DNA from: Candidatus Omnitrophota bacterium
GTDB taxonomy: Bacteria; Omnitrophota; Gorgyraeia; Gygaellales; Profunditerraquicolaceae
NCBI GenBank assembly: GCA_023227925.1
Contig: JALOCE010000002.1
Span: 1-58,615 of the forward strand
Reading direction: 5' to 3'
Length of the DNA: 58,615 nt
Shown: one piece after another, positions 3,828 to 33,006 of the stretch
Layout: the number at the start of each line of letters is the position of its first letter
How positions within the stretch are numbered: position 1 is the stretch's first letter
Translations under genes and position numbers: made by a program
The notes under the pieces: model-generated
The model's database searches: none
Told to the model about the DNA's origin: nothing
The model's input: only the letters and a program-made list of their open reading frames with translations

Positions 3828-3841
3828 CGCGCCGCGAATAT

Positions 3842-8080: not shown

Positions 8081-8183
8081 TGGCGCGTTATATTAGGTAC
8101 GCTGCAATAAATGCAGCGTCCACGCCGCGATAAAGCGGCGCAGGCACGAAATGAATGCGCGCGCCGTTGATATATCGCGCTAA

Positions 8184-9290
8184 ATGATATGCGACGACGC
8201 GAACCCAATGCGACAATTCGCGCGCTGGTGCGACGCAATTCGCATTTGCGCGACCGGAGACCGCTATCGCATGCACGCCATTCTGAGCGCGGAGCAACAT
8301 GGTAAAGACGATAATCCGCGCGCCTGCGATGCGCTATTTTATTCGTCGTGTTTCGAGGGCGCCGCGCAATCCGGCGACGTGCGTATGATGGCGGAAATCG
8401 TTGATGCGGCACGCGCGTGCGGCTGCGCGATTCACCCCGCGGCTGCGCATGGCGCGCTTTATCGCGCGTGCGCATCGAGCGCCGTGGGACATTCCCTCGC
8501 TCTTATTGATTATCTTCTCGCGACATTCGCGCGATCGCGGGACGCGGACGCTCCGGTGCCCAATCTCGATCTCTGCCTCGCGATCGCGGTGCGTGCCGGC
8601 CACCACCGCACAATATCCCGCATTCTCGACTTTGATTTCGTGGAGAGCTGCCGGCGAGATCACGCTTCTCCCGCCGCGCGGCCCGCTCTCGATGGGGGCG
8701 AGTTATTCGCGACAATAAAATGGATCGCGCGTTCGCATTCGCCGCGCGCGCCAACATCAGGGCGCCCGCGGCGGCGGCGCGGTGACGCAGCGAGACCGCA
8801 ACTCGCGCGCGATGAGTTGCGCGATGGTATATTCGCGGTCGATCGCGCAAAAAAGATTGACTCCGCGCTCGCGCGAGCGCTCGTTCGCGACTCTCTTGGC
8901 GATATAATTGCGGCGTTCGTCTCGCCCGCAAAGCGTCCCTACGGGGCGATTGATTCGAGGGATATGTTCCGCATATGCATCGCGACGATTCGGAATATCG
9001 GCGAGCGCGAGCGGAACGACGCGCTCGCCAATGCGCGCGCGGTATATTCGCTGCGCAAGGTAGATATAATTCCGGGAGCTATCCCCATAGCGAGCGCGAC
9101 CGGCGGCGAGAATTACGCGACGCGCGTGTTTGTTGTATTTATAGAGGCGCCGCACGAGCTAACGCTTCAGTCGCTGGCGCAAGATACTTCGGTCACGCGC
9201 GCTGCGAGCGCGGAACGTCTGCCGCTGGTTGCTCGGCTTCCGATCATTCGGCTCCCGATAATTCAGCCGCCTATCTCCGTGGCGCGATGA
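8184..9290 (+). CDS. hypothetical protein
   Basis: ATG is preceded by GTTGATATATCGCGCTAA and, further up, by GAAATGAAT (8148-8156). Confidence 0.5.
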   Translation: MICDDANPMRQFARWCDAIRICATGDRYRMHAILSAEQHGKDDNPRACDALFYSSCFEGAAQSGDVRMMAEIVDAARACGCAIHPAAAHGALYRACASSAVGHSLALIDYLLATFARSRDADAPVPNLDLCLAIAVRAGHHRTISRILDFDFVESCRRDHASPAARPALDGGELFATIKWIARSHSPRAPTSGRPRRRRGDAARPQLARDELRDGIFAVDRAKKIDSALARALVRDSLGDIIAAFVSPAKRPYGAIDSRDMFRICIATIRNIGERERNDALANARAVYSLRKVDIIPGAIPIASATGGENYATRVFVVFIEAPHELTLQSLAQDTSVTRAASAERLPLVARLPIIRLPIIQPPISVAR

Positions 9291-12002: not shown

Positions 12003-12037
12003 AGGAGAGCGGTATTATTCCGCCGCACAATATAGAA

Positions 12038-14008
12038 ATGGAATACCGTCCCGCGGCGCTCGCGCACGCGGATATTTTTGAGAATTTCATCGACACGCAA
12101 CAATATCATGGGCATACGACCGAGGGCGGTCCGCTTCCCGCGTATCTGCTCACGCGCAAATTCGATGAGACGCCCGATACATTCGACGCGCATGCGTATT
12201 ATGACTTCTCGCGCCGCACGATCGCCGATTTTCGCCCTGATCCACCGCTATTCGAAAGCGAATCGCCGCGTGACACGCGCGGATGGAGTAAAACGCGGAT
12301 GAACGTGCGCACGACGGGCACGCGATCCGGCGCGGATCCGGCAGCGCATCCCGAAATGTTTCTCGGATTTATGGACGAGGATACGCGCACGCCCGGCGAC
12401 GATCATTTTCCAGCGTGGCGCATTGGCGCACAAATGGCGGCGCGCGCGCGATATTTGAAGCCGACGGAACCCGTGGGCGCGACTCATCTCAGCGAGGGTG
12501 TTCCCGGCGATATTGAGCCGGAAACGGCACGCGCGAAGAAATTACAAGAGGCGCGCGCGCGCGTTAAGCGCAATTTGCGTATATTCGGGCGCTCGATAGA
12601 GAATGATCAAGCGCGCGCGGGTCGCGATTGGGCAGTGCAGCCATGCGCGGGCGCATCTCAAAGCGCGGAAGAGCATGCGGGAGGCGCGCGCACGCAAGCG
12701 CCGGCGCGCGATGATGATGCGCTCGAAAGCGAAGAGACCGCAATGCGATCGCAACGGCGCGCCGAATATAATCCGCGCGACGAGAAACGCGGGCGCGTTG
12801 GAAGCGCGCGTCGCGGCGCGCCTGGTGGCGCCGCAACCCTCGCGGCTGCGCACGCGTGCGCGGTGGCGCCCGGTGGCGGGGCGGCGGATGTAATCGAGCG
12901 CGAATCAATCGCGCGCGACGCTGCGCCAGCGCGAATTGATGCTAGCGCGGCGGCAGACGCTGGTGCGCGCGCGATGAGACACAGCGCGCGCGGCGCATCG
13001 GAACCGCAGGGAACCCGCGCTGGCGATATTGCGGAAGTGCGCGGCGGTGCCAGTATTTGGCACCTCGCGCGCGATATGGCGGCAGTTGTTCGCGCGGCCG
13101 AGGGCGACATTTACGATGACGGCGCCGCTGCGGACCTGCGTCCGCGCGCGTGGCATTTGGACGATGGCGATCCGCTTGCGCTTCTCCATCGCGCGACCGC
13201 GCATGATGCCGAGCGCGCGCGAGATATTCTTGATATTGCGACGGAAATCGCGCGCCGCGGTGTGAATAATCCTTGGTCCGCGCCACACGTTGCGGTTCGC
13301 GGCGACGGTTCTCTCGGGCGCGCGCTCGGATGGTCCGGCGGTGCAGCGCGCGCGGCAGCGGTCGGCGATATCGCGGAACCAGCGTATCTCATAATTGACG
13401 CGCATCTCATGAAGCGCGCGTGCGGGAACGCGTCACCGCGCGAAGTGGATCTTATTCGCCGCCAAATGCTGACGGATGCGAAACGCGCGCCCGGATCGGA
13501 ACACGCGCTCGCGACTGCGGGCGCGATTGTCACGCGATTCGCAGGTGCGGTTCACGCATCGAGCCATACTGCGCGAGATATTGAGGCGGGCGCGGATGCT
13601 CTCGAATTACACAACGCGCGTGCCCTGCGCCCGGATGAATCCGCGCCCGCGTCATGGCATCGCGGCGCCGCGCGCAATATTGCGGCGCCCGAATTCATCT
13701 CGGCACCCGCGCGCCCAGACGCTCACGCGCGCGCGGCTGCGCCTCGCGGTGGTTCTCTTCCCGCGAGCGCTCTCGCGAGTGTAATGCGCGCGACGCGCAC
13801 TGATTCACTCGCGGCGGGGAGTACGCGCCGCGCTGCGCCAAATGTTTCCGGGCGCACATTCTCGCAATCGACCGCGCGACGAGGCGCACCCGCGGAATGG
13901 GCGGATCCTCTCGGCGAGAGAGAGCGCGCACCCGGCGGCGCGCGTTTGGGATTGCGCGTGCGTCGCGCCACGGCGCGCGATATGGCTGAGCCCGCGCTCG
14001 ACTTTTGA
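12038..14008 (+). CDS. hypothetical Ala/Arg-rich protein (656 aa)
   Basis: The ATG is preceded by CACAATATAGAA. It is divergent from 12002(-) across 35 bp. The N-terminal ~150 aa have normal composition. Confidence 0.55.
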   Translation: MEYRPAALAHADIFENFIDTQQYHGHTTEGGPLPAYLLTRKFDETPDTFDAHAYYDFSRRTIADFRPDPPLFESESPRDTRGWSKTRMNVRTTGTRSGADPAAHPEMFLGFMDEDTRTPGDDHFPAWRIGAQMAARARYLKPTEPVGATHLSEGVPGDIEPETARAKKLQEARARVKRNLRIFGRSIENDQARAGRDWAVQPCAGASQSAEEHAGGARTQAPARDDDALESEETAMRSQRRAEYNPRDEKRGRVGSARRGAPGGAATLAAAHACAVAPGGGAADVIERESIARDAAPARIDASAAADAGARAMRHSARGASEPQGTRAGDIAEVRGGASIWHLARDMAAVVRAAEGDIYDDGAAADLRPRAWHLDDGDPLALLHRATAHDAERARDILDIATEIARRGVNNPWSAPHVAVRGDGSLGRALGWSGGAARAAAVGDIAEPAYLIIDAHLMKRACGNASPREVDLIRRQMLTDAKRAPGSEHALATAGAIVTRFAGAVHASSHTARDIEAGADALELHNARALRPDESAPASWHRGAARNIAAPEFISAPARPDAHARAAAPRGGSLPASALASVMRATRTDSLAAGSTRRAAPNVSGRTFSQSTARRGAPAEWADPLGERERAPGGARLGLRVRRATARDMAEPALDF

Positions 14009-14047
14009 ATTTCGCGATGAGAATATTAGCAGCGCGCGGTCCATTCC

Positions 14048-15016
14048 ATGAGCGAAACAGTGATCACATTCAATCACGCGCGCGTTGTTTTCGCCGCCGA
14101 TGAGCCCGATGATATTGAATCATGGGCGCGCGAGAATAATATGCGATGCCCCGTATGCGAGCGCGTTCTCTCGGGCGCGCATGGCGATCGCGAACCACGC
14201 ATAATATGCACAGCGATCGCGATTTCGCCAACGGGAGCGGAATTTGGGCGCCTTACATCGGCGCGCGCTCTCTGCGCGAGTTATGTTCGCGCCAGCGTCG
14301 CGTGTGGCTCGTGCGCGGATTCCCTCGCGAATGCTGTCGCGCCAAAGCGCAGCGCGGAAATAATGGATATGGATCGCGCGCTGCGCATCATTTCGCGCAA
14401 AACGCGCGGTCGCGCGGGGGCGGCCCCGGTCGTTGAGTTCCCGCCGATGAGCGCGTCCGACTTTATATCGCATATTATCGCGCATGAAATGACTACGCGC
14501 GTGCGCCTCATTCTCGACCGCAAAGAGCTGCGAGAGAATGGCGCAGTCGCGGGTGAAATCGCGTACGTGTGCGCGCTCGCGCGGTCTCTTTTCTGCGCGC
14601 AGGACGATGGTCGCGCGTTTGACGCGATCAAGCGCGAGATTGCGTTCGCGCCGGGGACCGCGGAATGGTCGCTGTTCGGCGCGCTTGCCGGCGAATTCGC
14701 GGTCTACGCATGCGACGATGAGTTCGATAGTGTCGCGAATTCCACCTCTCCCGCGCGGCATCCATTCGAAGGCAGCGGCGCGGGCGCGATTTACTCGGGC
14801 GGCCGCGAGCTTTCCGTGTTCGAGACGGCGATTGTCTTGAGCGCGCAAATCGCGTTTCAGAGGCGCGCGGTTCCGCCCGAGCTCGTTTGCCAATTAATGC
14901 GTAGCGCCGAGGATACGCCGCGGATTGTATTCCCGGTCCAAGTGCGGCGGGCGCGCGACCAAAAAATAATCGTGCGCATCGGCGCCACGTTTGGTCCGCG
15001 ATTTGTGCTGATGTAG
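14048..15016 (+). CDS. hypothetical protein
   Basis: ATG is preceded by GAGAATATTAGC. T8 at 15041-15048 lies after the stop. Confidence 0.55.
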   Translation: MSETVITFNHARVVFAADEPDDIESWARENNMRCPVCERVLSGAHGDREPRIICTAIAISPTGAEFGRLTSARALCASYVRASVACGSCADSLANAVAPKRSAEIMDMDRALRIISRKTRGRAGAAPVVEFPPMSASDFISHIIAHEMTTRVRLILDRKELRENGAVAGEIAYVCALARSLFCAQDDGRAFDAIKREIAFAPGTAEWSLFGALAGEFAVYACDDEFDSVANSTSPARHPFEGSGAGAIYSGGRELSVFETAIVLSAQIAFQRRAVPPELVCQLMRSAEDTPRIVFPVQVRRARDQKIIVRIGATFGPRFVLM

Positions 15017-16851: not shown

Positions 16852-17478
16852 TCAGCGACGCGCGTCCGCGATTATTTTTTGCACAATCGCATCCGCGCGC
16901 TCGTATAGCGCACTGAGGTCGCAATCATTCGCGATTTCATAATCAGCGTCGATCGCGTCGCCGGCTGTTTCCGACGCGTGTTCGTCATTCGCGCCGACGC
17001 CAACAGCGCGACGCACGCGAATGATCGCGCCGCCAAGATCGCGCAAAACTTGCGCCTCGTTCGGAAAGCGAACATCCGAGACCACGATTATATGTGGCGC
17101 GAGTGGGCGAATGATGCCGCGCGACGCGCTCTCTATGCGATCGCGCAAGCTACGCGCCCATATATCGGCGCCGATGGATGGAAATCGCGCGCCGAGGGTG
17201 ACGCGGAACATATCAGTGCCGACGAATTGCAATATTTCGCGCGGCGTCGCGCCCCAGCGCGGATCAATCTCGTCTTTGAGCGCGGATTCGAGCTGTGCGA
17301 CGCTAAAACCGAACACGTCGCGCGCGATCGCGCGAATAGGGTCCGCGACCGCGAGTTTGCGCGTGAAGTGGTCGGCGCCGTATCGAGCACAAATATAATC
17401 CGCGATCGTATCCTTCCCGGCGCGGCGGCGTCCCGTGATCCCTATCGTAATGGCGATACTCTGCGCGTCGGCGCTCAT
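16852..17478 (-). CDS. deoxynucleoside monophosphate kinase (phage T4 gp1-like)
   Basis: P-loop GITGRRRAGKDT and SDVRFPNE motif. ATG at 17478 is preceded by GGATATAGCCAAA and by AAATTGAAT (17503-17511, minus strand). Confidence 0.7.
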   Translation of the reverse strand: MSADAQSIAITIGITGRRRAGKDTIADYICARYGADHFTRKLAVADPIRAIARDVFGFSVAQLESALKDEIDPRWGATPREILQFVGTDMFRVTLGARFPSIGADIWARSLRDRIESASRGIIRPLAPHIIVVSDVRFPNEAQVLRDLGGAIIRVRRAVGVGANDEHASETAGDAIDADYEIANDCDLSALYERADAIVQKIIADARR

Positions 17479-17502
17479 TTTGGCTATATCCGCGCGGCGC
17501 GG

Positions 17503-17533
17503 ATTCAATTTGCGCGTCCAGGCGAAAATGAAT
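17503..17533. promoter_or_regulatory. back-to-back early-type promoter motifs: AAATTGAAT (minus strand, 17503-17511) for dNMP kinase and AAAATGAAT (plus strand, 17525-17533) for 17568
   Basis: Both lie ~30-40 nt upstream of the first ATG in their direction. Confidence 0.5.
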
Positions 17534-17567
17534 CGCGCGCGTCAAAAAAAACGAACTATCAGTTTTA

Positions 17568-18113
17568 ATGCCATCCCCTTGCCGCAATCATATCGAGGAA
17601 GAGCTTGCCGCGCGTGAAGAGCGCGCCGCGGAGGAAGAGGTGGTGCCTGATTTCCATATCGAGGACGAGGAGGTGCCCGATTTTGACGATGATGAGCCCG
17701 AATGGGAGCCCGCGCCGACGGGAATCGCGCTCGACGACTGGGTCCCGGGAATGGAGACGCGCGACGATTGGAGCGACGATACGCGCGCGATATGTGATGA
17801 CGATTACGCCTCCGAGGAAGACTACTCTGCGAGGATGAGCTGGATCAAAACCCCGGTCGGCGGTGATTACTCGTCCGACGATGATTCCGCGTGCGAAGTG
17901 AATCGCCAGCCTACGCCCGATGCGTACGCGACCGACGATGATTCCGCGTGCGAAGTGAATCGCCAGCCCACGCCCGAGGCTTTCGCGACCGAAGATCCAG
18001 ACGGCGGCGCGAGCGCGAGTGGCGATACTCCGCGCGCGAGTATGGAGCATTTCGCGCGGCCCATTCCAGCGCGCGCCGAGAGCGTGTCTCATCTTCTCGG
18101 CGAGGATATGTGA
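17568..18113 (+). CDS. acidic protein with internal 57-nt duplication and one dispersed-repeat copy
   Basis: It is the first ATG after AAAATGAAT (17525-17533). DDDSACEVNRQPTP is duplicated (17877-17920 and 17934-17977). SGDTPRAS at 18012-18041. T6 at 18221-18226. Confidence 0.55.
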   Translation: MPSPCRNHIEEELAAREERAAEEEVVPDFHIEDEEVPDFDDDEPEWEPAPTGIALDDWVPGMETRDDWSDDTRAICDDDYASEEDYSARMSWIKTPVGGDYSSDDDSACEVNRQPTPDAYATDDDSACEVNRQPTPEAFATEDPDGGASASGDTPRASMEHFARPIPARAESVSHLLGEDM

Positions 18114-18258
18114 ATAAATCATGCATTCGGGCGCGGGCGGGAGATAAAAAAGACGCGCCGCGCGAGGGCGATCGCGGAAGACCCCCCCCCTTTCAACAGC
18201 GAGAAGACACCAATTCTCTCTTTTTTCGCGCGCACGCGCGCACGGCCCCCTGCGCCGG

Positions 18259-18272
18259 AAAAAAAATTGAAT
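18259..18272 (+). promoter_or_regulatory. orphan AAAAAAAATTGAAT motif in the longest non-coding stretch
   Basis: The extended match AAAATTGAATTCGCC compares with AAAATGAATTCGCCC upstream of Skp1 (19581-19597). Confidence 0.4.
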
Positions 18273-18417
18273 TCGCCCTCTCTAAGCAGAGGTCACAATA
18301 CCATCGCACCGGGTGGCGTTGATGATCTCTAAAAATCCTCGCGGAAACGCGGGGGATGAGCCGCTCGCGCCTCGGCGCTTGAGCGACTCATCAAATTTTT
18401 TTTCGCGCGTGTGTGCC

Positions 18418-18840
18418 TCAAATGATGTCGGACATCGCCAGATTGGCGTATTCCGCATCGATACGCGGCGCGGCCGCGCAAGACATAAGCGCGGTGGGCA
18501 ATATAACGCGCGCGATTGCGGGCGCGCGCTCGAGCGCGAGCGCGAGTTGTTCAATAAACGCGCTCGCGATTGCCGGCGCGCTGAGAATTGCGCGCGGTAA
18601 TACAATCACCTCGCGCACAGAATCGCCAAACGTAATCGGCGCGGCGCCGGCGGGCGGCGGCAGCGGCTGCTGCTGCGCGTCATTTTCGCATCCATAAGCG
18701 ATAATAACGCGCGCGCACTCGATTGCAGACGCGCGCTCGCGCGGATAGTGCGCGATGCATAAACTGCGCGCGTAAATATCGTTACACGCGTTATCCGTGG
18801 TGGCACGCTCGATCGGGTTAATATTGGCGCTAATCATCAT
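18418..18840 (-). CDS. hypothetical protein (140 aa)
   Basis: ATGATG at 18840 is preceded by GCGCGAATAT. Confidence 0.45.
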   Translation of the reverse strand: MMISANINPIERATTDNACNDIYARSLCIAHYPRERASAIECARVIIAYGCENDAQQQPLPPPAGAAPITFGDSVREVIVLPRAILSAPAIASAFIEQLALALERAPAIARVILPTALMSCAAAPRIDAEYANLAMSDII

Positions 18841-18948
18841 ATATTCGCGCGGGACGCGTTTCGATGGTGAGGATGAACACCGCTCGGTGCGGAGGCGCTC
18901 ATTATAATGCGCGCGCGATAAAAAATGAAGCGCCGCGCGATCATTATA

Positions 18949-19539
18949 ATGAGCGTCTCGCGCGGGAACTTGCATCTGATAATCGGCCCAATGTTCTCGG
19001 GCAAATCATCGCTCATGCTGGGCGCGGTCGAGCGTTACGCGCGCGCGGGTCGCAAATGCATAATTATTCGCCATGGGCGGGACCATCGCGATGGTGAGCG
19101 CGCGACCATGCGGACGCACGCTGGGCATATTCACGATATGGTTCCGATCGCGCGCTCATCATCGCTCACGGATGCCGAAACTGCGCGCGCGATCGACGCG
19201 AGCGACGTCATCGGGGTTGATGAAATGCAGTTCTTCGCGATGTACGATGAGGACATTGCACGCGCGGTCGCGAGCGCAATAGAGGAGTGGTTGCTGCGCG
19301 GGAAGATCATTATTTGCGCCGGATTGGACGCGGATTGGCAGCGCGAACCATTCGCGGTCATAGCGCTGCTCGTGTGCGCTGCGGATCGCGTTACGAAATT
19401 ACTCGCCGTTTGCACGCGCTGCGGCGCGGATGCCCAGTGCTCGGCGCGCACGCTTTTCGACGACGCGTATTCCGATCCGGTCGGCGGCCGCGAGAAATAC
19501 GAGGCACAGTGTCGCGAATGCTATCGCGCCGCGATGTGA
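18949..19539 (+). CDS. TK: thymidine kinase (type II)
   Basis: IIGPMFSGKSS, VIGVDEMQFF and C-terminal zinc ligands CTRCG...CRECY. The ATG at 18949 gives the usual ~12-aa lead before the P-loop. The upstream ATG at 18925 lies inside an AAAAAATGAAG promoter-like motif. Confidence 0.9.
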   Translation: MSVSRGNLHLIIGPMFSGKSSLMLGAVERYARAGRKCIIIRHGRDHRDGERATMRTHAGHIHDMVPIARSSSLTDAETARAIDASDVIGVDEMQFFAMYDEDIARAVASAIEEWLLRGKIIICAGLDADWQREPFAVIALLVCAADRVTKLLAVCTRCGADAQCSARTLFDDAYSDPVGGREKYEAQCRECYRAAM

Positions 19540-19580
19540 TGCTGCGCGCGATTTATTTTTCGCAATGATACGCGCACGCG

Positions 19581-19591
19581 AAAAAATGAAT
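19581..19591 (+). promoter_or_regulatory. early-type promoter motif AAAAAATGAAT upstream of Skp1
   Basis: ~40 nt upstream of ATG 19631 with no intervening ATG after the motif. Confidence 0.5.
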
Positions 19592-19630
19592 TCGCCCACT
19601 TTTGAGATATAAGGGACCATATATTTCGCG

Positions 19631-20236
19631 ATGACGACGACTGCCAGCAAAGAATCCGAGATAGCAATCGCCCCCGAGGTGGCGCGCGACGGCGCACCGC
19701 CAGCATCCGGACCGAGCGCGACGCCGCCCGTGGTCGCGCTTAGCGGCAAAATCGCGCACATAATATGCGAGGACGGGACGGCGTTTGACGTCCCCATCGA
19801 GGCCGCGAGAATAAGCAAGGTTGTGAAGCATATGATCGAGGATATCGCGCCAGGAGATGCGCCAACCATCCCGATCGCCGCGGAACCATCGCGATATGTG
19901 CGGATCGCGTTCGAATATTGCGCCGAGCTGGCGCGCCACCGCGATGAGTGGACCGATTGGTCGCGGCTCGCGGAGTCGCGCGTTCTCGATTGGCAGCGCG
20001 AATTTATCATGCCGTACTACGATAGCATCGAGGACCTATTCCATCTGCTGCGCGTGGGGACATTTCTCGATATATCCCAGCTCGTTGATCTCTCGGCGTA
20101 CATCAGCGCGGAGAGAATGCGCTGCAAGACCTACCTCGAGCTGCGCGAGATGCTCCATATTACGGACACTGGATTCACACCGGAGCAGGAGGCCGCGATC
20201 AAGGTTGAGCAGGATAACCTCTTCAAAACAGCGTGA
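19631..20236 (+). CDS. SKP1: Skp1 homologue (SCF ubiquitin-ligase adaptor)
   Basis: Collinear with Skp1: DGTAFDVPIEAARISKVVKHMIED (POZ part), WQREFI, LFHLLRVGTFLDI, and C-terminal FTPEQEAAIKVEQDNLF. Confidence 0.85.
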   Translation: MTTTASKESEIAIAPEVARDGAPPASGPSATPPVVALSGKIAHIICEDGTAFDVPIEAARISKVVKHMIEDIAPGDAPTIPIAAEPSRYVRIAFEYCAELARHRDEWTDWSRLAESRVLDWQREFIMPYYDSIEDLFHLLRVGTFLDISQLVDLSAYISAERMRCKTYLELREMLHITDTGFTPEQEAAIKVEQDNLFKTA

Positions 20237-20355
20237 TCGCGCGATGGCGCGGTGCAGCGCGCGTTATTTTTTGCGCGCGCGCGCCATTTTTCGCGCGCGT
20301 ACGCGCTATTTTTCGCGCGCGCGAAATTGAATCCCCCGCGCCTTGATAGAAAGAA

Positions 20356-21342
20356 ATGGATAAATCGCTAGCGCTGATGTTTCCAATTCTGCGCGGGCAT
20401 CGCCCGCAGAAATACTGCACGGTCGAGGATGACGATGGCGCGCGCGGTACTCCGCCAGCGCCGCGGCCACTTCTCGCAGAATTCACGCCCGAGCAAATAG
20501 AGGCGGCGAAAGCATCTATTCTCGCACACCTCGCCGCCGCGCAATCGGACGCGCGCGCGACGCAATCGATCCCAATTGAAGAAGGCGCGAAGGTGTGCGC
20601 CCCCGCGTTCGATCATGATGTTCTCGGGATGCCTGACGCGATCGAAGATGTGCGCTTTGATGATGGCGTTGCGCCACCGGGATGGGCACGGCGCGGTGGT
20701 TTTTCGACGCGCATTATTTCGCGCGAATGCGCGCTACGCGAGGCCGCGCGCGGCGCGATCATTAATTCGCTCGCGCAACCCGCGAAGATATGGATGCGCA
20801 AGATGGCGCGTAAATCGCGCGACGCGTTCATAGATTTGAGCCGCGCGTATCCGCCGCTCGCGCGCGCCGAGCGATTCGCGATGTGCTCGCGCTTGCGCGA
20901 CGCGCTCCCGGCGATTCTCGCGGGCGCGCACGTAAACGCGGCGGCGCGCGATCCGGGATGCGATGATTTCTATCGCATATTGCGCCTCAGTCGCTTCAAT
21001 AATATGTGGAACCGCGATCGCTGCGCGTTCTGCTCGCAGCAGCGCGAATCAATGACTATAATCGTCGTCATGATCCCGTGCGAGCATATTTTGTGCGCGC
21101 GAACTGAGTGCTTTGGGCGCGGTAGCGGCGGCGGCGCCGATGACAATACTCCGCGCACCAGCGCGAGTGATGATAAACCCGCGTGCCCGCTATGCGCGAT
21201 CGAGGCGGACGCGCTATTTCCGTTCGCGATAGGCGCTGGAGCTCGCGGGTCGTCGCGCGCTGTATTTATAGATTCTTCTCTCGCGGTGCCTGAGTCGATT
21301 ATCGAGAAATGTGTGTCCGCGATGCGCGACAGTGCGCGATGA
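20356..21342 (+). CDS. RING-finger protein with a dispersed-repeat copy inside the RING
   Basis: CAFC ... IPCEHILC ... [GGGADDNTPRTSASDDKP] ... ACPLC. AAATTGAAT (20324-20332) lies upstream. Confidence 0.6.
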   Translation: MDKSLALMFPILRGHRPQKYCTVEDDDGARGTPPAPRPLLAEFTPEQIEAAKASILAHLAAAQSDARATQSIPIEEGAKVCAPAFDHDVLGMPDAIEDVRFDDGVAPPGWARRGGFSTRIISRECALREAARGAIINSLAQPAKIWMRKMARKSRDAFIDLSRAYPPLARAERFAMCSRLRDALPAILAGAHVNAAARDPGCDDFYRILRLSRFNNMWNRDRCAFCSQQRESMTIIVVMIPCEHILCARTECFGRGSGGGADDNTPRTSASDDKPACPLCAIEADALFPFAIGAGARGSSRAVFIDSSLAVPESIIEKCVSAMRDSAR

Positions 21343-21383
21343 CGCGCGCGGTTTCTTTTTGCGCGCGCAATATACTTCGCGCG

Positions 21384-21551
21384 ATGATGGGTGTATTCAT
21401 TCCCTCGTGGGTAATAATCGCTGTGGTCGTTATTATGATTTTCTACTCGTGCGGCGGACGTGTGGAGACGCTTCTCGCGCCGCTCGGGATCGCGCCGAAA
21501 ACCGCGGACGCGGTTGAATTGTCGATGCGCCAGCAGATGTTCGCGCGCTGA
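21384..21551 (+). CDS. small membrane protein (55 aa)
   Basis: ATGATG is preceded by GCGCGCGCAATATACTTCGCGCG. TM segment FIPSWVIIAVVVIMIFY. T8 at 21578-21585. Confidence 0.45.
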   Translation: MMGVFIPSWVIIAVVVIMIFYSCGGRVETLLAPLGIAPKTADAVELSMRQQMFAR

Positions 21552-21577: not shown

Positions 21578-21585
21578 TTTTTTTT
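21578..21585 (+). terminator. T8 run after stop of 21384..21551
   Basis: GCGCGGGGGCAACCGCGGC-TTTTTTTT. Confidence 0.45.
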
Positions 21586-21633
21586 GATTATGCGCGCGCG
21601 GATTAGATCACAAAAGCGTTTTTATACCGCGCG

Positions 21634-24600
21634 ATGTCGCACCCCATCATACCACCCGAGCCACGCGCAGCGGCCGCGCTCACCATTATTCATCTCGCGG
21701 ATATCCACATTCGCGACACCGCGCGCGATCGTTTTGCTCTCGCTCTCACGCGTTTGGGCGAGTTCTTGCGCACCAATCGCGCAGCGGCACCGCCAGATAA
21801 CGCGCTCATGACGATCGTCGTTGGCGACGTTTTTCATTATAAAACGCGATTGAGCGCCGAGAATATCAACGATTGCTACGCGCTGCTCGATACGATCGCG
21901 GAGCACTCGCGCGCGATCGCGATTATCCCCGGAAATCACGACGCGAACCTGGGCAACGATGGGCGCTGCGATCTGCTGACGCCGATACTGAGTAACTGTC
22001 GCGAGCTGCGGGGTGGCAAATGCGAATTATTCTATTGGGCGCGCAGCGGATGGACCGAGGTGGTGCTGGGGCGCGCGCAATTCTACGTATTTTCGCCTCT
22101 TTCGCGCGCCGGCGCGCCATCGGTGCTCGATGTTGCCGCGGCACGCGCCGAGGGTTCGCGACCGCTGCGGATCGCGCTGGTACATGATTTTATTCACGGC
22201 GTAAACGTCGCCGATGGTTCGGGAATGACGAGCGAGGTTCGCTCGGAATGGCTGGATCAATTCGACGCGACGATGTGCGGGCATTTTCACGACTACGCGG
22301 CGCGTCTGCATCCCGCGTCCGGCAACCCCATCGTTTATTGCGGCGCGCTCACGCAGCTCACGATCGGCGAATCATTCGATAAGGGATTCGTGATATGGGA
22401 CGCGCGCGTTGGCACTGCGGGCGCGTGGGAGCTCGCGCATCGATTTATCCCCATCGAAATTCCGGGCGCGCTCGTGAAATACGTCGTATCCGCGGATAGC
22501 TCCGGGCGCGTGCGCGTAGAATCGAATTGCACCACGAAGGGGCGCCATATTACACCGGATGCCGAGAGATGTGTGGTTGAATTGCGCGCGGGCGTCAAAA
22601 AAGACGCGCCCGCGATCGCCGCGCTCGTCGATGGCATCGGCAAGATTAATCCGCGTGCCAACGTGAAAATAGTAGTTCCCGCGGAGCACGTAGCGGGCGC
22701 GGTGTCGCGCGAGGTGGCGCTGAGTACGACGGGGCGAAAGCAGGAGGAATTGATCGCGGAAAAGCTGCGCGCGGCAAACTCGCGGATCGACGACGGAACG
22801 ATCGCCTCGGTAATCGCGCTTCACGTGCGAACGATGGCGAGCATCCGCGCGAGCGGTGAAGGTAATACTCCGCGCGCGAGTGGCGATAGCGCTCCTCCTC
22901 CGCGCGCGATCGCGTCCGTGGCGACGAAATGGACGCTCGCGTATCTCGAGTGGAGCGATCTATTCTGCTATGGGCGCGACAATTATATTAATTTCGCGTC
23001 CGTGGCGGGTATCGCCGGCCTCATCGCGCCGAATCGATGCGGGAAGTCATCCATTCTCGATATTCTCGTCCTCGCGCTGTTCAATCGCACGCTGCGCGGA
23101 TCCGCGTGTTCCATTATTCGGCGCGGACAACGCGACGCGAGTTTGCGCTGCGTTTGGACGACGCGCGCCGACGCGAGCGTGCCGCGCGAGGATGTTCATG
23201 AGCTCACGCGCGCGTGGAATTATTGCGGTAAAACGAGAATACAATACCTCGTGAATGATCGCAATATGACTGACCTCGATTTGCGCCAGACGTATCTCGC
23301 GATTGAGCGCTCAGTCGGCAATCTCGATGATTTTCTCGCGGCGGTGCTCATTCCGCAGCATAGTGATATATCATTCATCGACGCGACCGACGCGCAGCGG
23401 CGCGCGACCATATCGCGCATCCTTGGTCTGGATTTGCTTGACGAAGCGCTATCCATCGTCAAGACGAGCGAGCGCGAAATTAACGCGCGCGTTCGCGCGC
23501 AATCAGAGGTCGTCGAGCGCATAACGCGCCGAATAGCGGAAATCTATGCTCATGCGTGTCCGCAGCAAGCATCTGGCGCGGCGCCGGATCACGCGGAAAT
23601 GCGCGCGGCGATGATGAAGCGCATCGAGGACGCGAATAAATACGTCGCGGATCTCCTCGCGAGGCTAAGGGAGCTGGAGGCAATACCCGCGGTCGCGCGC
23701 CCATCGAAAACGCGCGATGATTATGCGCGCGAGATCGCGGCGGCGAGGGGACGCCTCGCGTCACTCGAGGAAGAGCGCGCGCGAGAGGAAACGCGCATGA
23801 ATGAGGGTCGGCGGCAGCTGCGCGAATTGATGAGCGCGGTGCCGGCGCTATTTCCGAGCGCGACGCCGACAATAAGCCCGATATCTGTGGAGCAATTAAT
23901 TGATCGCGAGCGCGAGCGCTTGACACGTTTGGAGGAGCAGATAGACCAAAGCGCGCTCGCGTTTGCGCGCGTGAAGGGCGGAATTAAGCCCTCGGAAATT
24001 CCATCGCGGCTTGCGCGCGAGGTGAAGCGGTGCGAATACTTGGGCGAGATGCGCGCGGCGACCGAAGCGATCGCGGCGCGGAGCGCACCGTCGCGCGACA
24101 CACCGAAAATCATCGCCGACGCGCGGATGCGCGAATTTGCGAGCGCGTTTGGCGGCGCACCACCATCGACGATTGATGAAACGCGCGCGGCGCGAGCTGT
24201 CGCCGTTGCAAAACGCAGTGAAATCGAGGCGCGACGCGGCGATGATTCATTACCGCGCGAGTGTCGATGCGCGCGCATAGAGAAACTATACCCCGCGCGT
24301 AATCGCGCGGAACGCGTGGTGCGCGTTGATACCATTCGGCGCGCGATGTTTGCCGCGAGCGTGGAGTTGCCGCGCGATACACCCGCGAATGCTGGCGCGT
24401 GCATTGATCGCATCCGCGCGATTGTTGGGACGGTTGCCGTCAAGCGCCAACAACTTATTCTCGCGTATCCCGACGCACTGCCTGGTCGCGCGAGTGGCGG
24501 CGCGCGCGGCGATCCGCGCGCGAGTGATGGTAATACTCCGCGCGCGAGTGATGGTAATACTCCGCGCGCGAGTGATGGCAATACTCGCGCCTGCGCGAGT

Positions 24601-26202
24601 GATGAAATTCCGCTCGACGCGCTTATGGAAATCGCGCATTGCGCTATTGGCGCCGTTCGCGCTGGCATCGCGCCGATCGCGCGGATAGTCTCGCGCGGTG
24701 CGTTCGATGACGCGCAATTCTGCCTCGAGCATCACGACGAAATCGAAACGCGCGCGGCGATTGCGGCGGAAATGGCGCGTGCGGATGGCGAAATCGCGCG
24801 CCTCGACGAGTGGGAATCGCATATTATCGCGAGCGAGCGCGCTGCGGTATTAAACGCGTTGCGCGCGAAATTAGAGACTGCGCGCGCTGGTTTCACGGCG
24901 CTCGCGGGAGATACGCGCGTGCCGCGAACCGCGGATGAAATTCGCGATCAGCTGCATAAATCCGAGCAGGCGGTCGCGCTGTTGCGCTCGATGAATGAAC
25001 AGCGCGCGAAAATAGTCGCCGCGCAGGCGTTGGACGAGGAAATAACGCACCTAAAATCGCGCGTCGATAGTTGCTTCGCGATCCAGCGCGCGACCATCGC
25101 CATCGATAAATGCGAGGGTGCGTATGCGCGCGCGCGAGATAACGCTGCAGCGGCGCGAACTCAAGTCGCGGATCTTGAGGCGCGCGCGAGTGCGGTGGTG
25201 GCGGAATGGACTGCGTATGAGGAGAGCGCGGCGCGCGCGCGCGAAATCACGCGCTTACGCGATCAGTACGCGCGCGATCATATGGCGAAGGTGTCGCTTA
25301 TCGCGGAATCCGAAGAGCTGGTGCGCGCGCAACGCGAATTGAGCGAGGTAAGCGCGGTCCTCGCGATCGCGCATCGTGAAAGTCACATCCATCAGCTTTA
25401 CGCGATGGCGCTGGACGCGAAAACCGGGATTCAGCGCGACCTGATGGCCAATTCCATTCATCTCATCGAGGAAGAGACCAATCTCATGCTGGCGTCGACC
25501 GCGCAGCTGCGGATTTCGATTAAGCTCGGCGCCGCGAGCGTGTCGTCAAGCGCCGGCGGCGTAAAGGATGCCGCGACGGTCACGGGGGCGGTCAAAGCGA
25601 TCGCGATTACGGTGCGCGATCTCGCGCGCGGTGATGTTGAGCATGCTGCCGAGTTATGCAGCGGATTTCAGCGCTTTGTGCTCAGCGTCGCGCTTCGGCG
25701 CGCGTTTCTGCGTTGCGCGGTGCGGCCGATGCCGCATTTTATGATAATAGACGAGGGATTCGGCTGCCTCGACGAAGAGAACATGACGCGGATGAGCGAG
25801 TATTTACCCGAGCTAGCGCGCGAATTGCGCTTCATAATGATCGTGTCGCATATCGACTCGCTGAATACGATCATCACGATGCCGATGCCGATCGATTTTA
25901 GCGCGCGCGGTGGTGGTGACGCTGGTGGCGCGATTGTGAGCGCGATGCGTTTTGGCGCGCGTCGGTGCGCGGCGCTAGTTGGGGGCGGCGACGGCGCGGC
26001 GCGCGCTGGCGTTATTCCTGTCAGCACGAAAGCGGCGCGAGCGAAGAAGGTTGCGCCCACATATGACGCCGCTATGGTTGATAAGCGCGCGGACGGGACG
26101 CTTTTCTGCAAGCTATGCGGATGTGATTTCAAGCTGTGGACGCGCCATATTGTTACAAAAAAACACGCGCGGAAATGCGCGAGCGCGCTGGTGACCAAAT
26201 GA
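21634..26202 (+). CDS. fused Mre11/SbcD-type phosphoesterase and Rad50/SbcC-type coiled-coil ATPase, with a C-terminal U1/matrin-like C2H2 zinc finger
   Basis: Phosphoesterase motifs HLADIHIRD, VGDVFH, PGNHD, GHFHD. Walker A APNRCGKSS, then a ~900-aa coiled-coil-like Ala/Arg/Glu region. Signature-like CSGFQRF, Walker B FMIIDEGFGCLD, VSHI. C-terminal CKLCGCDFKLWTRHIVTKKH. Two dispersed-repeat insertions. Confidence 0.85.
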   Translation: MSHPIIPPEPRAAAALTIIHLADIHIRDTARDRFALALTRLGEFLRTNRAAAPPDNALMTIVVGDVFHYKTRLSAENINDCYALLDTIAEHSRAIAIIPGNHDANLGNDGRCDLLTPILSNCRELRGGKCELFYWARSGWTEVVLGRAQFYVFSPLSRAGAPSVLDVAAARAEGSRPLRIALVHDFIHGVNVADGSGMTSEVRSEWLDQFDATMCGHFHDYAARLHPASGNPIVYCGALTQLTIGESFDKGFVIWDARVGTAGAWELAHRFIPIEIPGALVKYVVSADSSGRVRVESNCTTKGRHITPDAERCVVELRAGVKKDAPAIAALVDGIGKINPRANVKIVVPAEHVAGAVSREVALSTTGRKQEELIAEKLRAANSRIDDGTIASVIALHVRTMASIRASGEGNTPRASGDSAPPPRAIASVATKWTLAYLEWSDLFCYGRDNYINFASVAGIAGLIAPNRCGKSSILDILVLALFNRTLRGSACSIIRRGQRDASLRCVWTTRADASVPREDVHELTRAWNYCGKTRIQYLVNDRNMTDLDLRQTYLAIERSVGNLDDFLAAVLIPQHSDISFIDATDAQRRATISRILGLDLLDEALSIVKTSEREINARVRAQSEVVERITRRIAEIYAHACPQQASGAAPDHAEMRAAMMKRIEDANKYVADLLARLRELEAIPAVARPSKTRDDYAREIAAARGRLASLEEERAREETRMNEGRRQLRELMSAVPALFPSATPTISPISVEQLIDRERERLTRLEEQIDQSALAFARVKGGIKPSEIPSRLAREVKRCEYLGEMRAATEAIAARSAPSRDTPKIIADARMREFASAFGGAPPSTIDETRAARAVAVAKRSEIEARRGDDSLPRECRCARIEKLYPARNRAERVVRVDTIRRAMFAASVELPRDTPANAGACIDRIRAIVGTVAVKRQQLILAYPDALPGRASGGARGDPRASDGNTPRASDGNTPRASDGNTRACASDEIPLDALMEIAHCAIGAVRAGIAPIARIVSRGAFDDAQFCLEHHDEIETRAAIAAEMARADGEIARLDEWESHIIASERAAVLNALRAKLETARAGFTALAGDTRVPRTADEIRDQLHKSEQAVALLRSMNEQRAKIVAAQALDEEITHLKSRVDSCFAIQRATIAIDKCEGAYARARDNAAAARTQVADLEARASAVVAEWTAYEESAARAREITRLRDQYARDHMAKVSLIAESEELVRAQRELSEVSAVLAIAHRESHIHQLYAMALDAKTGIQRDLMANSIHLIEEETNLMLASTAQLRISIKLGAASVSSSAGGVKDAATVTGAVKAIAITVRDLARGDVEHAAELCSGFQRFVLSVALRRAFLRCAVRPMPHFMIIDEGFGCLDEENMTRMSEYLPELARELRFIMIVSHIDSLNTIITMPMPIDFSARGGGDAGGAIVSAMRFGARRCAALVGGGDGAARAGVIPVSTKAARAKKVAPTYDAAMVDKRADGTLFCKLCGCDFKLWTRHIVTKKHARKCASALVTK
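22855..22890 (+). repeat. dispersed repeat, single copy (sense; SGEGNTPRASGDS) in the SbcCD-like gene
   Basis: GGTGAAGGTAATACTCCGCGCGCGAGTGGCGATAGC. Confidence 0.85.
24493..24606 (+). repeat. dispersed repeat, 24-nt unit AGTGATGGTAATACTCCGCGCGCG, 2 exact copies plus degenerate flanking copies (sense) in the SbcCD-like gene
   Basis: Exact copies at 24523-24546 and 24547-24570. Peptide RASDGNTPRASDGNTPRASDGNTRACASDE. Confidence 0.9.
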
Positions 26203-26240: not shown

Positions 26241-28580
26241 TTATCTCGATGACGTCGCGCTCGCGCGCAATAAATCAATATCACCGCAGGACGCGTTGAG
26301 CGCGCTATCATCCGACTCACTTTCATCATCGCGCGGCAATGGATGGCGATTGCGATCCAGTAATTCGCGCGCGTACGCGATAAACGCGGGGTCATCGCGC
26401 TCGACCGCCGATGAGCCGACGATAAGAATCCGCACCATCTCGGTGAGACGCTCGCGCGTGAGATTGCGCAGAATAATGAGCTCATCGCTGCGCACGTTGA
26501 ACAGGCGATATTCCTGTTTCGCGCCGGTGGCGTCGCACGGAGTATCGCCATCGAGCGTCAGAAACGCGTAACACGCGAGTTGCAGGATATGCTCGCTGCG
26601 TAGCGCGCCGGAGGTGCATTTTATCTCGTAATGAACGCGCGTCCCGTTTTCGGATACGATGCAATCGATGCGCCCGCATATGATGTAATAATCGGCGCTC
26701 CCGGATTCGCCGCGCGCGACGGAAACGCGATGCTCCGCGCTCACCTCGAATTGTATTTCTGCGGGTGATTGCTCGCAGTGCACCGGCTTGGTGGGCTCAA
26801 TTTCAGCGCGCAACCGCGCGATCGCGAGATCCATATTCTCTCGCGTAATCCATTCCCAATCGCGTATCTGGATGAGTTTATGCACATACCGGGAATCTAT
26901 CGCGCACGATACGGCGGCGAGACGCGCGTAATATGGTACCGTGCTGCGGAGTTGTTCGCGAAACGGTGTCCAGTAATCTCTGCGAATACTCTTGGCTCCC
27001 CCCAAGCTGCGCTGGTTTTTCTCGTCGAATATATGTTCCTCGACCTGCTCGCCAGCGCCGATTCTAAACGCGAGCGCGATTGGGATCGCGGTGCCCGTTA
27101 TTTCCGATACTTCCTCGACGCAATTGCCGCGGCTTGCTGTGGTCACGGGGATTGCGATACACTTATCGGACGCAGGTCGCGCGATGACGTAATCAACGCA
27201 CGCGAGAGCGCGCGCAAGCACGTCCAGCGTCTTGTGCGAGACAAGTTGGGTAACGCTCTTGCGCGGTGGCAATCGGCCTTTATTTTTCGGCCATTGGCAC
27301 CGCGGCGGAAGCGGGCCAACGTACTCGCAGTGATCCAACGCGCGATCCGTTAGAAACGCGAGCGGCGCGCTCTCGAGTGATCGAATAACGGTGATCTCCG
27401 TTTTCGCGCGCGTGAGTGCGACATATTGCGCGTTGCTGAGGGTGGATGGCGGCATATCGCGCGCGCACGCGAAATATCCCGCGTCGAACCCGAATACGAA
27501 CACGTGATCGCGCTCGAGCCCCTTGGATTGATGATACGAGAGAAAACACAGCTTGCGCCGCAGCACGCTATCCTTTTTGCACCCGATATCCTCAAGATCC
27601 GACGCCGGGACGTACACCTCGGCGCGATTCGATTTTGAGAGCTTGTTGGCGACCTTATGCACCAGGTGGTCTCCCTTGAGCGATGGCGCGATGCAAAATA
27701 TATTTTCCGCGCCATATGTGCGCATCGCGTCCGCTATTCGGTCCGCGATTTTCTTGGCGTCCGAGAAATGCGCGAAAACGTAATTAACGGGCGCGCCCGG
27801 TTTGCGCGAAATCATTCGCGGCGCACGCTCGCCAGGCGCGAGACCGCGGATCAATTCGTTGACGAAACCAGCCATCGGAATCGTGCAGCGGAACGTTTGG
27901 CTGAACGAGACGCGCTCGAATGGTATACCCAATATTTCCGGAAACATGGTGAGAAAGCGTGCATCCGAGCCATTATAGCCGTATATCATCTGATATTTAT
28001 CGCCGATCACGCATACGCGCGGTAATATTTTCGCGTCGGGCGCGCCCGTCGCGCACGCTTCGATGCACAATCCGATGAGGCGAAACGTGAGCGGAGCGAT
28101 ATCTTGCGCCTCGTCGATCACGATAGCGTCATAATGAGTCGCGAGCGCGAACCCGCCGTGTGCAAGAAGCTCGCTCATATCAGCATCATTGCGACACACG
28201 ACGCCGTGCGCGAGTCCACATAGTGCGTGGTAGGTATACGCGTTGATATTGCCGCATTGCGCACCGCGCGCGCGATTCTCGGTTTCCGTCTGGAGGCGTT
28301 TATTATACGTGATGAATAGCATTCGCGTGCGCGGGTTCGCGCGCGCGAGATGGAGAATGAACGTCGTTTTACCACCGCCGGCGACGCTATCGACGAGAAT
28401 ATTCTTGCCGCGCGAGAATAATTCAATCGCGTGTGCTTGCTCCGCGGATGGACCCGGAATCGCGGATGGCGCCGGAATCGCGGGAAGCCCCGGAATCGCG
28501 GGAAGCCCCGGAATCGCGGGCCGCGCGGGCCGCGAGCGTGATGATTTGCGCTGCGCTTTCACTTTATGGGCGATAGGCAT
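26241..28580 (-). CDS. UvrD/Rep-like SF1 helicase fused to a C-terminal RecB-family PD-(D/E)XK nuclease
   Basis: Helicase motifs AGGGKTT, IVIDEAQDI, GDKYQMIYGY, SQTFRC, YHQSKGLERDHVFVF, YVALTRAK. C-terminal GRIDCI...YEIKCT...QLACY matches D...ExK...QxxxY. ATG is preceded by CAGTATAAAAA. Confidence 0.85.
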   Translation of the reverse strand: MPIAHKVKAQRKSSRSRPARPAIPGLPAIPGLPAIPAPSAIPGPSAEQAHAIELFSRGKNILVDSVAGGGKTTFILHLARANPRTRMLFITYNKRLQTETENRARGAQCGNINAYTYHALCGLAHGVVCRNDADMSELLAHGGFALATHYDAIVIDEAQDIAPLTFRLIGLCIEACATGAPDAKILPRVCVIGDKYQMIYGYNGSDARFLTMFPEILGIPFERVSFSQTFRCTIPMAGFVNELIRGLAPGERAPRMISRKPGAPVNYVFAHFSDAKKIADRIADAMRTYGAENIFCIAPSLKGDHLVHKVANKLSKSNRAEVYVPASDLEDIGCKKDSVLRRKLCFLSYHQSKGLERDHVFVFGFDAGYFACARDMPPSTLSNAQYVALTRAKTEITVIRSLESAPLAFLTDRALDHCEYVGPLPPRCQWPKNKGRLPPRKSVTQLVSHKTLDVLARALACVDYVIARPASDKCIAIPVTTASRGNCVEEVSEITGTAIPIALAFRIGAGEQVEEHIFDEKNQRSLGGAKSIRRDYWTPFREQLRSTVPYYARLAAVSCAIDSRYVHKLIQIRDWEWITRENMDLAIARLRAEIEPTKPVHCEQSPAEIQFEVSAEHRVSVARGESGSADYYIICGRIDCIVSENGTRVHYEIKCTSGALRSEHILQLACYAFLTLDGDTPCDATGAKQEYRLFNVRSDELIILRNLTRERLTEMVRILIVGSSAVERDDPAFIAYARELLDRNRHPLPRDDESESDDSALNASCGDIDLLRASATSSR
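28454..28525. repeat. private 18-nt minisatellite (CCGGAATCGCGGGAAGCC, 4 units) encoding (PAIPGL)n at the helicase N-terminus
   Basis: Units at 28454, 28472, 28490 and 28508. The middle two are identical. Confidence 0.9.
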
Positions 28581-32477: not shown

Positions 32478-32484
32478 TTGAAAC

Positions 32485-32506: not shown

Positions 32507-32514
32507 CTTCAACT

Positions 32515-32949: not shown

Positions 32950-33006
32950 CGCGAAAAATGAATATTTTTTCGGTCGGTATTATCAATACCGCCGCTCGCC
33001 AATATA

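Follow-up and report, generated by a model that had tools for sequence, protein, structure and literature searches.

The early upstream control element (UCE) of vaccinia virus, reportedly described by Davison and Moss in 1989, is said to consist of an A-rich critical region with a TGAAA core that is bound by VETF D6/A7. Early promoters of African swine fever virus (ASFV) carry a 19-nt early promoter motif (EPM) with a core (cEPM) and a 'TA' initiator (Cackett et al. 2020, PMC7163114; 2022, PMC8906413). The cEPM, 5'-AAAATTGAAT-3', sits 15-16 nt upstream of the transcription start site (TSS), and the A of the initiator is +1 (PMC8906413); the full 19-nt motif, a relative of the vaccinia UCE, stops 9-10 nt short of the TSS (PMC7163114). 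The octamer AAAATTGA is known from Mimiviridae and from pacmanvirus, in which a TATATA late motif and a T-rich 3' motif accompany it, and the upstream conserved sequence of yeast cytoplasmic linear 'killer' plasmids has been described in the literature as similar to UCE and EPM. Here we examine an element of this kind, an A-run followed by TGAAT, in contig JALOCE010000002.1 (58,615 nt, all of which was analysed; hereafter the window), where the original prediction had placed it upstream of a defined subset of genes. The element acts as a cis signal that is specific in both strand and position, conserved in evolution and set at a fixed distance from an initiator-like A, and we consider it about 85% likely to be the core early-type promoter of an asfarvirus-like virus, homologous to the ASFV cEPM and the vaccinia early UCE.

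A conserved, position-specific element with fixed initiator spacing

The predicted sequence is present at all eleven positions first listed. On both strands of the window, AAAWTGAAK (W, A or T; K, G or T) occurs ten times against 2.06 ± 1.25 expected, and none of 100 dinucleotide shuffles reached ten. Among all 252 and 504 permutations of their respective compositions, AAAATGAAT and AAATTGAAT rank first in frequency, so the A/T-richness of the spacers cannot account for the signal. None of the ten copies is coding; nine point to a gene start, and the tenth, an orphan, points to a structured non-coding stretch. By our own gene model eight of the ten are intergenic and the other two lie only within open reading frame (ORF) extensions that start at the motif-embedded ATG, compared with 25% intergenic for generic eight-letter A/T words. 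The motif lies 18-43 nt upstream of the start codon, and the distance from motif start to ATG was measured at 29-53 nt, where 30-55 nt had been proposed.

An annotation-driven k-mer comparison of the 70 nt upstream of 44 gene starts with coding interiors recovered the motif de novo, as one of three word families alongside T-runs and ATATA-type words. The enriched words were AAATGAA, AATGAAT and ATTGAAT. AAATGAA was found eight times in upstream regions against 0.07 expected (p = 1.6e-14), with eight sense and two antisense occurrences, both of the latter being partners of divergent gene pairs. The motif is thus sense-oriented, upstream and depleted from coding DNA; an equal frequency there had been named in advance as the outcome that would count against it. 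The shorter class with three A's, AAATGAAK, is barely enriched (9 hits versus 3.75 expected; 3 of 100 shuffles reach 9) and also occurs twice in coding DNA, at 5328(+) and 31500(-). These two look-alikes have T and C at +16 and lack the A/T initiator signature described below.

Alignment of the ten AAAWTGAAK sites (orphan included) on the motif's last base revealed a G+C-rich spacer from +1 to +12, followed by A at +16 in 10/10 sites, T at +17 in 7/10 and A at +18 in 8/10; the invariant A mostly sits in a T-A-T-A string. With an upstream A frequency of 0.237, ten A's at +16 have P = 5.7e-7, or 1.4e-5 when corrected for 24 positions. The core resembles 5'-AAAATTGAAT-3' in all ten copies, and two of them match this ASFV 10-mer exactly, as had been claimed. 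An initiator-like A in T-A context therefore stands 15-16 nt past the core, and relatives of the virus have A or T there at 35 of 36 sites. If A+16 is taken as the start, the first downstream ATG opens a long ORF at 10/10 gene-linked sites and the predicted leaders are 3-28 nt long. The TSS would then be expected about 16 nt from the end of TGAAT, and the figure of about 10 nt given in the original prediction has to be replaced; 10 nt is the ASFV distance from the longer 19-nt EPM.

These relatives are syntenic metagenome contigs (L003 and L005-L010) that were found through helicase and SbcCD-like homologs and have 43-50% G+C. Their proteins share 35-52% identity with those of the window, so neutral DNA is long saturated, yet the motif is present upstream of the same genes. 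It is shared upstream of orthologs of the helicase, thymidine kinase (TK), Skp1-like gene, RING-like ORF and the ORF divergent from the deoxynucleoside monophosphate (dNMP) kinase, and also of the 33007, 39776(-), 49337 and 37198(-) ORFs. For 27 ortholog or positional groups, tabulated by presence of the motif in the window versus in at least half of the relatives, the counts were 10/1/3/13 (Fisher one-sided p = 3e-4). A weight matrix built from the relatives' sites only gave ranks 1-6 to listed sites of the window, orphan included, in a window-wide search of both strands. Among more distant helicase loci examined in IMG/VR, 13 of 22 have a cEPM-like word no more than 110 nt upstream, and the ASFV helicase ortholog is preceded by the variant ATAATTGATT.

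The 5' half of the motif is often a T-run in the relatives (TTTTTTGAAT), with TTTTTTG in 24 sense and 2 antisense upstream regions, so the conserved core is a W-tract followed by TGAA(T/G/C). The formula first proposed, AAA(A)(A/T)TGAA(T/G), was thus too narrow in leaving out T-run variants. The loose form, four A/T positions followed by TGAA(T/G/C), is uninformative in the AT-richer relatives, where 103 of 159 hits fall in coding or other non-upstream DNA.

With transcription starting downstream of the motif, the ATG within AAAATGAAT would never be in the mRNA, and the TK and helicase genes would begin at 18949 and 43185, as had been predicted. Ortholog N-termini agree with both starts. The TK Met at 18949 aligns with Met-1 of L008 and L009 and, in L010, with an internal Met, the start called there being the motif ATG too; the helicase Met at 43185 corresponds to Met-1 in three relatives and to an internal Met in L003, and the sequence collection's gene model for the helicase also begins at 43185. 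ORF callers repeatedly take the ATG in the motif (AAAATGAAT) or one upstream of it, which yields non-conserved N-terminal extensions. Such starts were called at 18925, 43158, 32531 and 53815 in the window, and at L010 4974, L003 10001 and 3746, L005 5531 and L006 2955. Start miscalling at the motif is a systematic annotation error in this clade.

The relationship of the virus to asfarviruses, also part of the original prediction, is borne out by its polymerase. The window's Rpb2 matches ASFV RPB2 chains with E = 1.7e-241 and 807 bits, by far the best among solved relatives; with Pol II and vaccinia rpo132 it scores 363 and 105 bits. A 1474-aa ORF is a homolog of ASFV M1249L (E = 7e-20), and a poly(A) polymerase catalytic subunit, a VP39-like protein and a p49-like protein (weak match) are also encoded, together with TK, a Skp1-like protein, dNMP kinase, a UL9/F1055L-type helicase and an 888-aa DEAH/Prp43-like helicase. 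Rpb2, the M1249L homolog, the poly(A) polymerase and the VP39-like protein point to an ASFV-like multisubunit RNA polymerase apparatus; a poxvirus transcription system is not indicated, Rpb2 being far closer to ASFV than to vaccinia. The window has 60% G+C throughout, and Asfarviridae metagenome-assembled genomes range from 17 to 60% (Karki et al., PMC8005611; promoters were not analysed there). Because of this range and its gene content, we take the window to be a genome fragment of an uncultured asfarvirus-like (Asfuvirales) virus.

The window corresponds to ENA contig ERZ27247363:k141_210163 or to a near-identical strain. A megablast search of positions 17000-21500 against a phage database gave no match. 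A scan for sigma-70 -35/-10 promoters found 3 versus 2.6 ± 1.7 in shuffles, which is no enrichment, and a scan for hairpin-plus-T terminators found 11 versus 6.4 ± 3.2, which is not significant. Neither the tRNA scan nor the Rfam scan of the whole window returned anything.

Genes carrying the element and companion signals

In the divergent intergenic region beside the dNMP kinase gene (16852-17478, minus strand), AAATTGAAT at 17503-17511 (-) is followed by T15-A16, with a predicted TSS at A17487, and relatives carry TTTGAAT variants at the same place. On the other strand, AAAATGAAT at 17525-17533 (+) precedes ORF 17568-18113 (predicted TSS A17549); its positional counterparts in L008, L009 and L010 all read AAAAAATGAAT. 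This ORF contains an in-frame 57-nt tandem repeat at 17868-17996 (+), with 2.3 copies of 90% identity and an acidic, D/E-rich product, and a second repeat with an 18-nt unit at 17595-17639. The TK motif, AAAAAATGAAG at 18920-18930 (+), has a predicted TSS at A18946, three nucleotides before the ATG at 18949, and is kept in L008, L009 and L010. The Skp1-like gene (19631-20236) is preceded by AAAAAATGAAT at 19581-19591 (+), with a predicted TSS at A19607 and the motif kept in 3/3 relatives. Upstream of ORF 20356-21342, AAATTGAAT at 20324-20332 (+) predicts a TSS at A20348, and the motif or its T-variant is found in 3/3 relatives. The motif of this supposed RING protein was confirmed; the RING-like domain itself is detected only below threshold (E = 0.008).

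Further along the window, AAAAATGAAT at 32954-32963 (+) precedes ORF 33007-34893 (predicted TSS A32979), and AAAATTGAAT is kept at this place in 3/3 relatives. The top hit of the relatives-trained matrix is AAAAAAATTGAAT at 40452-40464 (-), upstream of ORF 39776-40417(-), with a predicted TSS at A40436 and conservation in 4/4 relatives. The gene itself is 213 aa long in the window and in Logan contig L002 and 226 aa long in the ENA contig (L001 6553-7233), so that near-identical strains or assemblies differ here by 39 nt in frame. The helicase motif, AAAAATGAAG at 43154-43163 (+), has a predicted TSS at A43179 and is kept in L003 and L005-L007. ORF 49337-50098 has AAAAAATGAAT at 49284-49294 (+), a predicted TSS at 49310 or 49327, and a second ATTGAAT at 49305-49311, 13 nt ahead of ATATAA; its L003 ortholog has AAAATTGAAT. 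The weakest copy of the listed set is AAATGAAT at 8149-8156 (+), upstream of ORF 8184-9290. It has three A's only and so belongs to the barely enriched class with two coding look-alikes; ATA occupies +16 to +18 (predicted TSS A8172), and the first downstream ATG opens a long ORF. ORFs 17568, 8184, 37198 and 49337 have no match in Pfam, and the function of most tagged ORFs is unassigned by annotation.

All sites in the first list are present as given, and about six further probable members were missing from it. ORF 37198-38001(-) has AAAAATGAAC at 38026-38035 (-), and its orthologs carry the motif in 3/4 loci (L003, L005 and L006), with the near-miss AAAAATGAAA in L007. Another member, AAATTTGAAG at 53638-53647 (-), falls within the long ORF of the gene that begins at 52403(-), the start of which would then be ATG 53617 (or 53605); the L003 ortholog has AAAATTGAAG at the same position. 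A T-type copy, TTTTGAAT at 14003-14010 (+), possibly marks ORF 14048-15016, in a part of the window for which there are no relatives; TTTTGAAT as a class is not enriched in the window (2 versus 1.9 expected). Overall the element precedes roughly a quarter to a third of the genes, and with these extra members included it may be carried by about 15-17 of the 44 genes in the window.

The SbcCD-like gene at 21634 is preceded by a probable degenerate member, TTTTTTTTGATT at 21578-21589 (+), which is followed by T15-A16 and whose T8 doubles as the terminator of an upstream 80-aa ORF. Two of three SbcCD orthologs have the motif (TTTTTTTGAAT in L008 and AAATTGAAC in L009), and L010 has TAATTTGAAC 83 nt upstream. 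The gene (21634-26202, plus strand) encodes a 1522-aa fusion of a Mre11-like phosphoesterase and a Rad50/SbcC-like ATPase. It adjoins a gene for a 779-aa UvrD-like helicase with a weak PD-(D/E)XK match (26241-28580, minus strand), and the two form a recombination/repair module that is kept in all relatives examined. In the 247-kb relative L008, positions 2349-5675 encode a ribonucleotide reductase large subunit with an intein, the Pfam domain Intein_splicing lying between the Ribonuc_red_lgC halves.

Rpb2 has a probable one-mismatch member, AAAGTTGAAG at 32507-32516 (-), which probably puts its true start at ATG 32476, not 32531. AAAGTTGAAT is kept upstream of Rpb2 in L008, L009 and L010, and ASFV RPB2, which belongs to the cEPM class, uses early as well as late start sites. 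The region 32475-32516 holds a near-palindrome, GGGGCTATATCAATATAGCCCC (32485-32506), with an inverted motif-like word on each side, AAAGTTGAAG facing Rpb2 and CATTTGAAAC facing ORF 32521-32949; each word has T-A about 15-16 nt away inside the palindrome. The arrangement looks like two overlapping divergent promoters, and L008, L009 and L010 have the same two inverted TGAAT words around TATATA. For the VP39-like gene, a possible member, AATTTTGAAT at 49123-49132 (-), is internal, 34 nt before ATG 49089, and has TATA at +15. A longer ORF of this gene starts at 49191 behind an ATATAA box of its own; the collection's call starts at 49089, and homology begins at residue 95 of the long ORF. The starts at 49191 and 49089 may be alternative early and late sites that give two isoforms, as in several ASFV genes.

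The other two word families recall the late and terminal signals of known relatives. ATATA, TATAA or TATAG boxes lie 5-45 nt upstream of the ATG in 27/44 genes, for example at 58195-58215(-), 42135-42140 and 12028-12034, and agree with the late-type TATATA motif described in ASFV, faustovirus, kaumoebavirus and pacmanvirus. No other signal can be recognised at the structural and packaged-enzyme genes, and the same is true of several genes that include the M1249L-like, poly(A) polymerase-adjacent, DEAH helicase and 40547/42158 ones. In most genes that lack the motif an ATATA box near the ATG stands by itself, which would be the late-type signal of ASFV and pacmanvirus; ATATA-type boxes also form the initiator patch of motif genes.

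T5-T9 runs, typically TTTTTTCGCGCG, occur within 150 nt past the stop codon in 34/44 genes and in 11/11 motif genes. Examples are 19555-19559, 20266-20271, 20286-20290, 20308-20312, 21578-21585 and 50121-50127. Runs of at least 7 nt are mostly intergenic (13 versus 7). These T5-T9 runs look like ASFV-type poly-T terminators, a signal that in ASFV is over-represented among early genes. In the relatives, the upstream gene's terminal T-run often runs directly into GAAT (TTTTTTTGAAT), as at L008 9966-9976, L006 13278-13288 and L006 7815-7825. This arrangement in L003 and L005-L010 looks like a fused terminator-promoter in which the T-tract replaces the A-tract.

The orphan copy and a candidate non-coding RNA

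The orphan, AAAAAAAATTGAAT at 18259-18272 (+), lies in a 300-nt gap between converging genes with no gene start downstream, and is the second-best hit of the relatives-trained matrix. Its predicted TSS, A18288, is where the first hairpin of a candidate small structured RNA begins. This 116-nt candidate (18288-18403, plus strand) has three hairpins followed by T8 at 18396-18403, and folds with a minimum free energy (MFE) of -59.8 kcal/mol (z = -7.7 versus shuffles). The minus strand of the same interval reaches -47.7 (z = -5.3), which is 12 kcal/mol worse. By raw MFE, the region downstream of the orphan is in the top 1% of 113-nt windows (82nd of 7802), a ranking in which the 25 most stable such windows are 64-79% G+C. 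The candidate matched no Rfam family and no tRNA, so the orphan is not linked to a known RNA gene.

Two other accounts of the locus were discarded. SNase occupies this place in relatives, and no SNase remnant is present in the window; ORF 18322-18600(+) has a poor codon score, crosses the T8 and overlaps a homology-supported minus-strand gene. That minus-strand ORF, 18418-18975, has weak but full-length homology to a small gene that relatives carry at this place; its most probable start is ATG 18840, which follows a GAATAT box.

A8TTGA in the promoter and TCAAT8 at the end form an inverted repeat, so the two T8 runs can alternatively be read as terminators that stand back to back and serve the converging genes. 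Apart from one SbcCD homolog of 99% identity the nearest has only 43%, so the relatives are too distant for covariation analysis. We regard it as doubtful, though far from negligible, that the orphan is a working early promoter of a U8-terminated non-coding RNA (ncRNA) of about 116 nt at 18288-18403 (+). We know of no promoter-defined, polymerase-III-like ncRNA gene in this virus group. If the candidate is real, it would be such a gene, transcribed by an asfarvirus-type viral polymerase.

A probable early promoter, alternatives and relation to known systems

Core identity, orientation, the A at +16 and ortholog conservation all support the ASFV/poxvirus-type early promoter that had been proposed. 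In such a promoter, a virion-packaged VETF-like heterodimer (homologs of ASFV D1133L/G1340L and vaccinia D6/A7) would bind the W-rich-TGAAT core and would recruit the viral RNA polymerase together with the window-encoded M1249L-like factor. M1249L joins the polymerase to VETF in a model of the ASFV early pre-initiation complex (PMC11579359). Transcription would initiate at the A about 16 nt downstream, giving leaders of 3-28 nt, and transcripts would end at the T5-T9 runs past the stop codon. We infer that the tagged genes are 'early' in their timing.

Several points weigh against this reading. Start sites, timing and termination are all inferred. The functional class of the tagged genes is loosely diagnostic and only suggestive, because ASFV polymerase subunits are themselves cEPM genes with early and late starts, and Rpb2 here has a one-mismatch variant only. 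The early-class argument of the original prediction is accordingly soft: TK, dNMP kinase, helicase and Skp1-like genes are tagged and the M1249L-like, p49-like, poly(A) polymerase and DEAH helicase genes are not, which lends it indirect support, yet cEPM-carrying genes in ASFV include those for polymerase. Among the four window ORFs of more than 1000 aa (SbcCD-like, Rpb2, UL9-like helicase and M1249L-like) there is no VETF homolog, a negative that covers a 58.6-kb window of an incomplete genome where one relative's contig is 247 kb, and an exact-sequence look-up of the M1249L-like protein, meant to lead to the remainder of the contig, found no record; the proposed motif-binding factor is therefore putative for this virus. 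Gene models in the first 16.8 kb of the window are our own, drawn from codon usage with no comparative backing. In the AT-richer genomes of the relatives the +16 preference is less sharp: 36 sites gave 23 A, 12 T, 1 C and 0 G, with a wobble of ±1.

It is unlikely that the element is a genuine asfarvirus/poxvirus-type promoter of another kind, one that is constitutive, early-and-late, or a marker of strength rather than timing. Such a promoter would fit the presence of the ASFV cEPM in steadily expressed clusters, RNA polymerase genes included (PMC8906413), the ATATA box that many motif genes also have near the ATG, and the possibility that Rpb2 and the VP39-like gene each have two promoters. 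However, in the systems that have been tested (ASFV, vaccinia, mimivirus and pacmanvirus) the motif marks genes transcribed by the incoming virion machinery, and the genes here for structural proteins and packaged enzymes (M1249L-like, p49-like, poly(A) polymerase and DEAH helicase) are without its strong form.

Of the ten gene-linked copies, five stand between divergent genes; as no upstream gene ends there, these cannot be terminators. The motif is always oriented toward the downstream ATG, permutations of the same composition are not enriched, and its spacing is fixed to the downstream A and not to the upstream stop. These observations make it highly improbable that the element marks the 3' end or termination of the upstream gene, or is A/T-rich intergenic filler, even though T-runs and A-runs are abundant between genes, the T-run in relatives often abuts TGAAT (the TTTTTTG counts above), and the orphan's A8 reads as T8 for the converging gene 18418-18840(-) on the other strand. 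A translational or stability element acting at the mRNA level, in the 5' untranslated region, would account for the motif always being no more than 53 nt from the start codon. Yet 7 of the 11 listed copies contain an ATG and would give upstream start codons if transcribed; in TK and the helicase this ATG is in frame and the extension is not conserved, and the distance to the true ATG varies from 18 to 43 nt whereas that to the A/T initiator patch is fixed. We find this explanation scarcely credible.

The early promoter that we favor resembles that of ASFV in several respects. The core is the same, two copies being the exact 10-mer and the others AAAA(A/T)TGAA(T/G); the spacing to the predicted initiating A in T-A context is 15-16 nt and the predicted leaders are short; a TATATA-type late box and poly-T terminators are its companions; and the viruses belong to the same order and have an ASFV-like Rpb2 and M1249L. 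It differs in that the window is 60% G+C and the motif forms an A/T island followed by a G+C-rich spacer, in that ATGAA and not TTGAA is the dominant form (6/10 AAAWTGAAK hits), and in that the 5' half in relatives is often a T-run shared with the upstream terminator. Moreover, the start sites here are predicted ones and no VETF gene is seen in the window.

Likeness to the vaccinia element extends to the order of A-run, TGAA, spacer and purine start and to the T-rich termination signals after genes, and the AAAAATGAA form has more in common with the vaccinia core than with ASFV TTGAAT. However, the window virus is not a poxvirus, as its Rpb2 scores show, and its motif ends in T or G followed by G+C-rich sequence, without a second A-run. 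The window element probably works like the UCE but belongs to the asfarvirus branch. The octamer AAAATTGA of Mimiviridae and pacmanvirus overlaps the motif in sequence and shares its sense upstream location and its association with a large gene subset, but the exact octamer is not enriched in the window (3 versus 2.18 expected), so the mimivirus type does not apply, and what is conserved here is TGAAT together with a W-tract of any kind. The element of yeast linear 'killer' plasmids, a comparison made by description only, is likewise a TGA-containing A/T-rich sequence in a minimal polymerase system related to nucleocytoplasmic large DNA viruses (NCLDVs); it is much shorter and belongs to another host and replicon.

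The early-promoter core was already known from ASFV; here it is found in a new GC-rich member of the lineage, with no new mechanism. The analysis also flags a candidate viral ncRNA. In the pacmanvirus paper, the octamer was reported to be absent from the GC-rich Pandoraviridae, and a GC-rich NCLDV that keeps the element contrasts with that report. The ASFV/poxvirus early core and its exact initiator spacing thus appear to survive in a deep, uncultured asfarvirus-like clade that spans 43-60% G+C. For metagenomic genomes of this kind, the simple rule of a W-tract-TGAAT, 15 nt and an A would provide a probable temporal class, a predicted TSS and a correction of the start codon.

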